Assembly: GCA_902544065.1 (NCBI GenBank) | Contig: CACCAS010000001.1 | Coordinates: 151,088 to 215,087 of the forward strand | From: an uncultured Pelagibacteraceae bacterium | GTDB lineage: Bacteria > Pseudomonadota > Alphaproteobacteria > Pelagibacterales > AG-422-B15 | Length of the DNA stretch: 64,000 nt | Reading direction: 5' to 3' | In this document: positions 12,001 through 15,000 of the stretch, one piece after another | Position numbering within the stretch: the stretch's first letter is position 1 | Layout of the letters: every line of letters starts with the position of its first letter | Program-made: the position numbers

Positions 12001-15000
12001 AAAAATGGAGTAATAAATGTTTGTATCTTTTACCGATTGGGAATTTGACGGAAATGTTGAAAATGCAGTTGAAAATATGAAAGGTTTTTGGCCTGAGATG
12101 AAAAAGCATGGAGCAACTAATATGCGTGCAACAGTTACGGGAGAAAAGACACTCAGAACGATGACTATCTGGAGCAGCGAAGAACAAGTGAAAGCTAACA
12201 TCGATGAAATTAGAGCAGCGGCTGGTAAAGCTGTAGGCATGACCACAACAGGTGGCATGATGGGTACAGTCGCAGTTGAGCTTGATTGATTTATTAATGA
12301 GAAGCAGTTTTTGTAATTGAGTGGTGCCCCCACACGGACTTGAACCGCGAACCTATTGATTACAAATCAATTGCTCTACCAATTGAGCTATAGGGGCAAT
12401 AAGGCTTTCAAGGGTTAGTAAAATCTGGGACACCACCGGGCCACCATCACTAGACTCTTGAAAGTGTGTTCATGCTTTATAAACTACGTATAAAATTATC
12501 ACAAACAAAACTTAAGTTATTGAAAAGTGTCATCTTTTAGACTATGAACCTTTTAAATATTGAAAAGCATAGAAATAGGCGACCCCAACATCAATTGCAC
12601 TATGAATAATAAAGGTTTCACTCTCATTGAACTTCTCGTCGTCGTTGCGATTATTGGAGTATTGGCTGCAGTTGGAGTCCTGGCGTTCCAAGGTTTTATG
12701 GAAAGAGCAAAAATTAATAGCACAAAATCTCAACATAAAACTGTCGTAAACTACATGCGAACTGAATTCCAAAGATGTTCTCTAGGAGAGGATCTCTTGA
12801 CTTATAAAAAATGGCATTCTACTGGAAATGAATGGAATATTATTGAAACAAGTGTTCTGTGCAGTGCTGATGCAGATATCCATGCTCAAAGTATTGATGA
12901 TCACTTTGAAGCAGAAGGTTTCATGAACTCTTTTGGATATGGAAGAGCAGTTGAAAGAGTCAACGTTGATATAGATCCTACAAGCCCAGGCTTTACAAAT
13001 ATATTTTGTGTTAGTGATAAGCAATGTAAAATTAAGACACATATTCACGGTTATCGCTTCTGGACAGATATGGTGACAAAAGAGTAATATAAAATATATG
13101 GCTCAAAAAGGCTTTACCCTCATTGAACTTCTCGTCGTCGTTGCAATCATAGGAGTATTAGCGGCGGTTGGCGTAGTAGCTTTTAATGGATTTATAAATA
13201 CTACTAAGGTTAATGCGACGATTCAAAGTCACAATACTGTGGTTAAATTTATAAGAACAAGTTTAATGAAATGTAATATATCTGGAGAACTTATATTAAA
13301 GCAGAATCCTCGAACAGATACAGGCAACCTATGTGTTTATGTTTCAAATCCAAATCCTGGTGCATTGATCTCTGCTTTTTGGAATCACTTAACAGCTGGA
13401 GAATATTGTAATACATACGGGTTAACCCATAACTCTGGTACATGTCAAGAAGGAGTCGCTCAAGGTGGTGCAATAGGCGCTGGTAATTTAGGTGAGGTAA
13501 AAATGATTACAGTTGGAACTACAATTGTAGTAGATACTCACTACAAGCAGGGTGAAAATTTAAATGATGTTATCAGAATTGAATAAAGGCTTCACCCTCA
13601 TTGAACTTCTCGTCGTCGTTGCAATCATTGGAGTACTGGCGGCTGTTGGGGTAGTAGCCTTCAATGGATTCATTTCAAGTTCAAAAAATACAGCATGTCA
13701 GGCTGAACATAGCAACAGAAGCAAATCGGCTCAATTGAAAATTAGTGAAAATATGCTTAATGGACAAAATATCACATTTACAAATATTGACGGAAATAAC
13801 GACACGATAAATTTTAATAGCAATACTTGGATACTTGTTTCGGGTTTATCTTCATATTTAAAATCTGAATATAAGAACCCAAATGGACCACTAAACGGAG
13901 CATGGGATCACTCTACGTATTTTGTAGATATTAATCAAATACCCACATCATGTACAGCCACTCAAATTGGCTACTCCTTTATGACAGGCATAAATGACAC
14001 ACGAACAATAAAATTTGGAACTTGTTGTAAAGTTGATCAACCGGCAATAGAAGAAAAGTTTAAATGGTAAATCGATATGTTTTAATATTTATTCTATGAC
14101 CCATAAAGGTTTCACTCTCATAGAACTTCTCGTTGTAGTTGCAATTATCGGAGTACTGGCAGCTGTTGGCGTAGTTGCATTTAATGGATTTATGAACTCT
14201 GCAAAAGAGAATAGTACAAAAGCTCAACATCAATCAGTTGTAAAGTTCATGCAAGTTCAATTTACAAGATGCTCGCTCGGCGAAACAGAATTATCATATA
14301 ATAAACCAAATTGGGATGGTTCTGCCTGGGGAGTGATTACGGTAAATGAATCTTGTCTGTCAACAGCGGACACACACGCCAAAAAATTTGACGATCATTT
14401 CGAAGCTGAAGGTTTTTTAAATCCATTCAATACAGAATCAAGAGCAGTTGAAAGAAAAGAAAATTACTTAGAGCCGTCAAGGGCAGGGGCCATATATATT
14501 TTTTGTCCAAATGATACTTCGTGTGAAATAAGAACAAAAATTAATAATAGCTTATGGCTGAAGGACACAGTATCAAAAGAATAAATAATATGCAAAAAGG
14601 CTTCACCCTAATTGAACTCCTCGTCGTGGTTGCAATCATCGGAATTCTGGCGGCAGTTGGGGTGGTCGCATTTCAGGGATTTATATCAAAATCTAAGCTT
14701 AATACATGTAATAGTAATTTTTCAACAGTATCAAAGTACGTTGGGACAACAATATTACAGTGTGAGACGCAAGGAGGCGTTTGGCCTTTTACAGAAACTA
14801 ATCAAGAAGCTTGTAATGTATGGCCCCCAGAAGTTCTAGCTACACAAATAGGTGCACATATTAATTATATGGGATTTAGAAACCCCTATGATGGAAGAGA
14901 GCTGGTTTTAAGTGGCTCAGATCCAAGCATAGGTGGTATATCAATTCATTCTCCGTCAATCACCTCTAAAGAAATTTATGTTACGAGTTGTTGCCAAGAC

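Follow-up and report, generated by a model that had tools for sequence, protein, structure and literature searches.

In Neisseria, silent pilS copies that lack the 5' constant region and the promoter donate sequence to the pilE expression locus by a non-reciprocal exchange that depends on a guanine quadruplex (G4). In the Piv inversion of Moraxella and in the R64 shufflon, a dedicated recombinase acts on inverted sites with a fixed crossover point and switches C-terminal segments of a pilin. A more general setting is the theory of identity-dependent gene conversion, which is said to go back to Walsh in 1987 and to Teshima and Innan in 2004, with the tufA/tufB pair as an example. SAR11, the most abundant bacterial lineage of the surface ocean, has hypervariable regions that are thought to govern interactions with phages and grazers, and the turnover of their content is poorly resolved. 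Here we analyse a tandem array of eight type IV prepilin genes, P1 to P8, in a SAR11 genome. The window, to which all positions refer unless another locus is named, is a stretch of 64,000 nucleotides (nt) from an uncultured Pelagibacteraceae bacterium (contig CACCAS010000001.1, positions 151,088 to 215,087 of the forward strand). The EF-Tu encoded in the window matches exactly a protein that NCBI lists under 'Pelagibacteraceae bacterium'. Two published observations are close to it. In Francisella tularensis, pilA is lost by direct-repeat recombination in a tandem pilin cluster, according to the account of Forslund et al. 2006 that is cited in PMC2941502. In 'Ca. Pelagibacter ubique' HTCC1062, pilin and pseudopilin genes are placed in the hypervariable regions HVR1 and HVR4 by the part of Wilhelm et al. 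2007 (PMC2217521) used here. In the literature on SAR11 pilin arrays and on gene conversion in pilin paralogues, we found no direct description of cassette arrays with module breakpoints or with a codon signature.

The eight genes are complete and lie head to tail on the forward strand (12602-16580), with intergenic gaps of -23 to +25 nt. Their products consist of a short leader, then the invariant peptide G↓FTLIELLVVVAIIGVLAAVGV(V/L)AF, and a C-terminal domain (C-domain) of 120-140 residues. We name "module" the 96 nt that start at the G-1 codon, and "core" the first 36 nt (12 codons) of the module. Our reading, to which we give a probability of about 0.6, is that P1-P8 share a recombination zone that shuffles cassettes and partly homogenises itself, and whose core is kept by self-reinforcing, identity-dependent recombination.

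The initial annotation of the window compared 24 codons of the modules, and we recover its counts. P2 (13113-13184) and P9 (33991-34062), a pilin gene of a second locus in the window, differ at 19 of the 24 codons and encode identical peptides, all differences being synonymous; P2 and P3 differ at 7, one of them within the first 12. The 26-mer CTCATTGAACTTCTCGTCGTCGTTGC is exact in P1, P2, P3 and P6 (at 12623, 13119, 13597 and 15093), and the patches reported as common to non-adjacent copies are present as described (GAACTCCTCGTCGTGGTTGC in P5 and P8, GTTGCGATTA in P1 and P6). With 1-3 mismatches the 26-mer is also found in P4, P5, P7 and P8, and dinucleotide shuffles produce 0 matches. Identical runs of at least 26 nt, the longest of 35 nt, occur in 7 of the 28 paralogue pairs. 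Under random synonymous recoding, 0.07-0.12 pairs of this kind are expected, and a count of 7 is reached in 0 of 2000 simulations. The claim that the modules are held identical at the DNA level holds for about the first 12 codons; it does not hold over the 24 codons, where array copies differ at 7-16.

The proportion of synonymous differences (pS, Nei-Gojobori) amongst the 28 array pairs follows the same boundary. It is about 0.38-0.405 in the first 12 codons, 0.693 in codons 13-24, 0.65-0.67 when the 20 codons behind the core are taken together, and 0.71 for the C-domains, with saturation of the later values; the paralogous C-domains do not align, and their synonymous divergence can be given only as "saturated". 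The 5' part of the module thus has the lower pS that the initial annotation expected relative to the remainder. The difference between the two 12-codon halves is 0.29 (bootstrap 95% interval 0.06-0.54), and paralogue divergence is lower in the core than in the invariant-peptide codons that follow (Mann-Whitney p=0.005-0.01). Per-codon identity exceeds the expectation from codon usage in the first 12 codons only (Wilcoxon p=0.0017; p=0.73 for later codons). The anomaly in synonymous identity is real, of moderate size, and confined to about 36 nt. A recent duplication is ruled out as its cause by C-domains that are 16-46% identical in protein, by their saturated pS, and by codons 13-32, which are saturated too.

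The core consensus is (CAA AAA) GGC TTC ACN CTC ATT GAA CTY CTC GTC GTS GTT GC, and its codons are indeed atypical for this genome, in which the guanine-plus-cytosine content (GC) across the window is 28-38%. In codons 1-12 of the array modules, compared to the other open reading frames (ORFs) of the window, CTC makes 71% of Leu vs 5%, GTC 46% of Val vs 9%, TTC 88% of Phe vs 19%, and GCG 50% of Ala vs 9%. Hydrophobic stretches of other window ORFs use CTC at 3% and GTC at 12%, so within the window these codons are not the usual choice in hydrophobic helices, and a codon preference of such helices is ruled out as the cause. Along the array genes, GC at third codon positions (GC3) drops from 0.52 in the core to 0.31 and then 0.19 in two successive stretches of 30 nt, and amounts to 0.234 in the C-domains, with a background of 0.236 and an expectation of 0.19-0.21 for the invariant peptide. 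The 40 array genes from protein-anchored loci give 0.525, 0.338, 0.198 and 0.239 along the same stretches. Taken codon by codon within the core, GC3 reaches about 0.9-0.95 for F, L3 and L7 and stays at 0.00-0.15 for I, E, L6 and V10, with T varying freely. C-ending and T/A-ending codons that are each fixed at their own position show that a particular sequence is kept, and not a composition. Deviations from the core go from G/C to A/T at 0.18 per site per copy vs 0.06 for the opposite direction (rates that are not polarised by an outgroup), which fits an AT-biased decay from a single consensus. Single-copy pilins of other AT-rich contigs encode the same peptide in AT-type codons, and the rare ones are therefore no requirement of the peptide as such. 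We also note single pilin genes in L124-L127 and L129-L132, which are IMG/VR sequences classed as viral (GC 0.28-0.33); they encode the peptide GFTLIELLVVVAIIG in AT-type codons.

We collected arrays of other strains in three ways. A scan of representative (GTDB) genomes with prepilin peptidase B, encoded directly after P8, gave L001 (91% identity) as the sole close relative, and 79 distant loci that were left unused. A metagenome scan with a degenerate core pattern gave about 20 AT-rich marine contigs carrying pilin arrays. Exact-protein look-ups of cluster members of peptidase B and P8 gave further loci, including L108 and L120 from separate genome assemblies. The loci of the pattern scan were ascertained by the core itself, and our conservation figures therefore rest on the window, L001 and the protein-anchored loci. 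Amongst array genes from loci found without the DNA pattern, 37 of 40 are within 3 mismatches of the 26-mer.

With cassette families defined by clustering C-domains at 70% identity, the arrays of different strains contain cassettes that are identical in kind and differ in order and number. The window reads P1 P2 P3 P4 P5 P6 P7 P8; L001 and L100 read N2 P1 N4 P3 N3 P4 P8; L104 reads P2 P3 N3 P4 N1; L108 reads P1 N4 P6 P7 P3 P4 N1; L111 reads P7 P3 N24 N23 N5 P4 N1; L114 reads N2 P1 P2 P3 P8; and L120 reads P8 N24 P2 U .. N7 P5 P7 P6. Depending on the strain, the gene that precedes P8 is P7, P4, P3 or N3. In other strains, near-identical bodies of P4 carry four distinct core alleles, and the P3 module is a mosaic amongst strains in its 5' part.

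Five junctions could be mapped by a three-way comparison of the 5' parent, the 3' parent and the recombinant, with positions counted from nt 0 of the G-1 codon. All of them fall inside -1 to +50 nt of the mature coding start, at variable positions. In gene 7 of L001, which joins the leader and core of P5 to the body of P8, the switch is at +8 to +11. In L108, both P6 after N4 and P3 after P7 switch at -1 to +8. The switch is at +32 to +47 for N2 of L001, and at +48 to +50 for N1 after P4 in L104. The leader, into which the 3' end of the upstream cassette often extends, goes with that cassette, as does the 5' edge of the module; the remaining module goes with its own C-domain. This also accounts for patches common to non-adjacent copies: P5 and P8, which share GAACTCCTCGTCGTGGTTGC, are the two ends of a block (the body of P5, then P6 and P7) that the window has and L001 lacks.

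Close orthologous cassettes, taken as one pair per family, differ at 51 of 528 sites (9.7%) in the first 66 nt vs 46 of 3315 (1.4%) elsewhere (Fisher p=3e-20), a 7-fold excess even though the peptide is invariant there. For P6, the window and L108 show 7 differences in the 36 nt of the core and 0 in the other 420. A module is closer to a paralogue of its own genome than to any orthologue in 12 of 49 cases for nt 1-66, and in 0 of 49 for nt 67-132. Paralogues that are too alike and orthologues that are too unlike in one and the same short tract are the classical mark of exchange between paralogues. Recombination or gene conversion that shuffles cassettes, one of the candidates in the initial annotation, is supported by the varying order and content of the arrays, by the junctions inside modules, and by this excess divergence of orthologues.

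The window has a second pilin locus, with three prepilin genes on the forward strand. P9 (33967-34440, module 33988-34083) comes after pilB/pilC-like genes and encodes the N-terminal peptide of the array in AT-ending codons. P10 (34488-34922) has a diverged N-terminus (GFSLIELLVTLAILG). P11 (34912-35415) has an AT-type module (34930-35025) with 5 mismatches to the 26-mer; both P9 and P11 match N_methyl. The module GC3 of P9-P11 is 0.07-0.08, and pS between the array core and P9 is about 1.0, which amounts to a systematically different choice of codons. In other strains this locus and the array share cassettes. The P11 orthologue of L082 and L094 has an array-type core. Array-type cassettes follow P10 in L093 and L096: in L093 (reverse strand, 1-330), N1 stands directly after P10 and carries the leader of P11, and in L096 the order is P9 P10 P1 P2 P11, with P1- and P2-type cassettes that are without the core. 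In L106, five array cassettes are found downstream of P11.

These results may be brought together as follows. The invariant N-terminal peptide would force a DNA identity of at least about 70% across roughly 100 nt, and this stretch could serve as portable homology for ordinary (RecA-type) recombination, both within one array and with the DNA of other strains. Most crossovers would fall in the interval from the leader to about +50 nt of the mature coding sequence, and from this placement it follows that the exchanged unit would consist of the 3' part of a module with the C-domain behind it, and of the following gene's leader together with the 5' part of that gene's module. The outcome would be whole cassettes that are inserted, deleted, replaced and reordered, and that also move between the peptidase B array and the P9-P11 locus. 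At the crossovers, repair of heteroduplexes and short tracts of conversion would re-spread one core sequence amongst the copies, and this re-spreading would make paralogues most alike and orthologues least alike in the same tract. Since recombination depends on identity, the most identical segment would draw crossovers, which in turn would homogenise it again. The cassettes that bear the consensus would be the ones moved and copied, a selection at the level of cassettes acting on a frozen ancestral sequence.

As far as comparison of sequences can establish it, the array has a recombination zone, its cassettes are shuffled, and the similarity of paralogues is locally in excess. That the rare GC-ending core persists against AT-biased mutation by means of self-reinforcing recombination is something we infer, and several points weigh against it. 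The Thr codon of the core (ACN) is free, with an entropy of 1.5 bits and three variants in the array of the window, and the synonymous sites of the flanking GGC, TTC and CTC are near-fixed. Plain homogenisation should act equally on neighbouring sites, so some site-specific constraint may act on the core. The P9 core, in its AT-type codons, differs by merely 14-19% amongst lineages, which makes the array core more conserved to a moderate and not a dramatic degree. The identical stretch spans 26-35 nt, which does no more than reach the minimum commonly cited for RecA-dependent exchange to be efficient. Selection at the level of cassettes is a hypothesis suggested by patterns in the sequences. 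Finally, several loci are short-read metagenome contigs in which some adjacencies could be chimeras between strains. Arrangements recur in independent samples (L111/L112/L113 and L104/L110), and this recurrence, together with exact repeats of at most 35 nt, makes assembly chimeras an unlikely explanation of the pattern, though a possible one for single loci.

A different force that could keep the core is selection on the mRNA or on codon choice, with recombination being incidental; the core would then be an initiation or coupling element, a site for a regulator or a small RNA, or a run of rare codons that slows translation for membrane targeting. Its position, 3-21 nt past the start codon in tightly packed genes with no obvious Shine-Dalgarno sequence, agrees with such a role, as do the presence of one consensus in many strains and three genomic contexts and a third-base pattern specific to position, with the Thr codon free between fixed neighbours. 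A nucleotide-level function, one of the candidates in the initial annotation, is conceivable on the strength of that pattern. Other signs of it were looked for in vain: no Rfam family matches the modules (E<=1), and the RNAalifold consensus of 78 distinct modules is near-unstructured (-0.95 kcal/mol). A conserved hairpin seen in single-sequence folds (GAACUUC..GUCGU-loop-GCGAU..GGAGUUC) was rejected: it pairs positions that are fixed by the amino acids, its sole third-position pair shows no covariation (p=0.21), and it is gone in the alignment fold. Consensus scans for sigma-54 and sigma-70 promoters in the module found nothing specific. P9, P11 and the single-copy pilins do without the rare codons, the P1- and P2-type cassettes of L096 do without the core, and the P11 cassette exists both with and without it. 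Moreover, orthologues differ most in the core region, the opposite of what simple purifying selection would produce. We regard selection on mRNA or codons as unlikely, while granting it real weight. GC-biased gene conversion, a hypothesis for bacteria reportedly due to Lassalle and colleagues in 2015, would have the repair of heteroduplex mismatches favour G/C and raise GC3 locally. It would explain why GC3 falls with distance across the zone (0.52, 0.31-0.34, 0.19-0.20 and 0.23-0.24 in the window and the protein-anchored loci) and why its raised part coincides with the zone of excess orthologue divergence. It is at odds with the third positions of ATT, GAA, CTT and GTT in the middle of the core, which are fixed as A/T (GC3 0.00-0.15) and go to G/C at only 0.06 per site per copy, with the lack of a general bias towards G/C, and with a GC enrichment of the Thr codon that is only mild. 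A compositional drive would also not yield one specific sequence, and we think it quite improbable as the cause.

A foreign origin would instead make the whole array, or the 5' module alone, an unameliorated import from a GC-richer donor. The core codons are those to be expected of a GC-richer organism, and the degenerate core pattern is also found in pilin genes on unrelated contigs of 46-60% GC (L081, L084, L091, L095, L099, L103); the QKG leader and the CAA AAA GGC TTY ACC start look like the 5' ends of classical pilA genes of proteobacteria. Import of the whole array, which the initial annotation had raised, is ruled out by C-domains that are native in GC3 (0.234 vs 0.236) and in their use of Leu and Val codons. 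Import of the 36-nt core alone leaves its persistence unexplained unless some force maintains it: saturation between paralogues in the 20 codons that follow the core shows that the copies are old, and foreign sites under no constraint would have ameliorated meanwhile. We consider a foreign origin very unlikely. Even less credence goes to a dedicated site-specific system that recognises the core, be it a shufflon, a Piv-type invertase, an integron-like system or one initiated by a nuclease. A short conserved sequence does stand at each cassette boundary, and the L120 array holds a T5orf172/MUG113 gene (nuclease-superfamily-like) and ends in a solo module remnant. Yet no domain of a recombinase, integrase or invertase occurs in the ORFs scanned around the array or in the precomputed Pfam annotations of related loci; every core is a direct repeat, and a search that allows up to 6 mismatches finds none on the reverse strand; a G4 motif is absent from 11-17.5 kb; the mapped junctions spread over about 50 nt and define no single point; and the 161-nt repeats that flank the L120 insert are unrelated to the core. 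A dispersed motif similar to Chi or to a DNA uptake sequence finds no support either, as the remaining 60 kb of the window show no enrichment of any GC-rich 6-8-mer taken from the core. A bolder version of the self-reinforcing recombination zone can be formulated, which we put forward tentatively and expect to be more than the locus bears out. The core would be a selected, self-propagating signal of cassette boundaries, and the SAR11 pilin arrays would form a recombinase-free, integron-like exchange system. Cassettes would circulate in the population, possibly through DNA uptake by the same pilus, and enter any array or the P9-P11 locus by double crossover in cores, with cassette-level selection holding the core against AT pressure.

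The array genes have the features of prepilins. The cleavage/methylation motif G↓FTLIE with Glu5 is followed by a hydrophobic helix, and ten pilins, P1-P9 and P11, match the Pfam family N_methyl (PF07963) above its cut-off. P1 spans 12602-13087 (module 12614-12709, core 12614-12649; N_methyl E=3.6e-9), P2 13098-13586 (module 13110-13205, core 13110-13145), and P3 13564-14070 (module 13588-13683, core 13588-13623), with a 23-nt overlap with P2 and a possible TTG start at 13579. P4 spans 14096-14584 (module 14108-14203, core 14108-14143). For P5 we use 14590-15066 (module 14599-14694, core 14599-14634), its longest ORF starting at 14554. P6 spans 15057-15542 (module 15084-15179, core 15084-15119) and has a possible TTG start at 15072. 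P7 spans 15552-16061 (module 15564-15659, core 15564-15599), and P8 16071-16580 (module 16083-16178, core 16083-16118). Overlaps with the 3' end of the preceding gene are found at 13564-13586, 15057-15066 and 14554-14584, and no obvious Shine-Dalgarno sequence is seen in the array genes. Together, the overlaps and the missing Shine-Dalgarno sequences suggest translational coupling, and the real start codons of P3, P5 and P6 are uncertain.

Genes for prepilin peptidases stand on either side of the array, all on the forward strand. Paralogue A (11126-11890; Pfam A24_N_bact and Peptidase_A24) is upstream, and paralogue B (16589-17374), the anchor used to fetch the arrays of other strains, comes directly after P8 and is followed by a PilY1-like gene and minor pilins. 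The two peptidases are clearly diverged; one adjoins a cluster similar to a type II secretion system (T2SS), the other the PilY1/minor-pilin cluster. ORFs with PilY1, PilX_N, T2SSE, secretin and pilB/pilC-like matches are also within the window, a context expected for prepilins. On its 5' side the array is bordered by a tRNA-Thr(UGU) gene on the reverse strand (12322-12397). A tRNA-Thr gene likewise borders the variable pilA region of Pseudomonas aeruginosa. An ORF of 90 amino acids (12017-12289, forward strand) with no Pfam match lies between peptidase A and the tRNA. A gene called upstream of the L108 array (3715-3987) is equal to it in length.

Some loci of other strains have peculiarities of their own. 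L120 carries a 1.39-kb insertion within the array (2217-3766), with the T5orf172/MUG113-domain gene and one unknown gene. The insertion is flanked by the 161-nt direct repeats, which are 92% identical and end in a tRNA-3'-like sequence, though ARAGORN calls no tRNA there. The insertion is probably an integrative element of small size. The solo module that ends the L120 array (5939-6003) consists of 21 codons (leader, core and the following module codons, with 3 mismatches to the 54-nt consensus), and then runs through sequence that is unrelated to a stop codon. This remnant has the look of a scar left by recombination or of an anchor for homology on the downstream side. In L108 (93-3478), secretin, T2SSE and a truncated T2SSF_N are found near the array and on its strand, without peptidase A; the T2SS-like cluster of the window is on the opposite strand. 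This arrangement indicates a further rearrangement beside the array. L001 (PAAD01000062.1) is labelled as a "Flavobacteriaceae bacterium", and its genes are 91-95% identical to those of the Pelagibacteraceae window; the label or the binning is probably wrong.

For the hypervariable regions of SAR11, the locus offers a concrete mechanism at nucleotide resolution, in which a constant coding stretch of 36-66 nt would be the crossover zone that reshuffles complete genes of surface filaments, both from strain to strain and from locus to locus. The locus also lends itself naturally to testing, since recombination, AT-biased mutation and codon usage act on its 12 core codons with opposing tendencies; on one short sequence, conversion that depends on identity, conversion that is biased towards GC, and mRNA-level selection can be tested directly against each other.

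Compared to the systems described at the outset, the array has a likeness to each. As in HTCC1062, pilin genes are part of a variable SAR11 region; in the part of that report drawn on here, they are listed as island content, without tandem cassette arrays, module breakpoints or a codon signature. As in Francisella, direct repeats that flank a pilin gene in a tandem cluster allow its deletion. The Francisella case, as far as the cited account goes, concerns one gene lost in few strains, whereas here we have an 8-gene array, many cassette types, insertion, replacement, reordering, movement between loci, and a codon signature in the core of the repeat. The array shares with Neisseria a C-terminal pilin diversity that results from recombination amongst many linked and unlinked copies. 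It differs from Neisseria in that every copy is complete, with start codon, leader and full module, that the exchange zone is the 5' constant region itself, and that no G4 is found in 11-17.5 kb. The Piv and R64 systems also combine a constant 5' part of a pilin with alternative 3' parts and recombine at or near the border; here the repeats are direct, the scanned ORFs include no recombinase, and the breakpoints are dispersed. To integron cassettes there is a functional analogy only, in exchangeable single-gene cassettes with a short conserved boundary and a content that varies by strain. There is no integrase and no attC structure, the boundary is coding and its homology generic, and the array is not of the integron family. 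Concerted evolution of the tufA/tufB kind shares with the array a tract that is more similar amongst paralogues than its flanks, trees of orthologues and paralogues that are discordant in that tract, and a homogenised state that reinforces itself. What sets the pilin array apart from tufA/tufB is that the tract is very short (about 36-66 nt), lies inside genes that are otherwise saturated, and doubles as the breakpoint of the cassettes.

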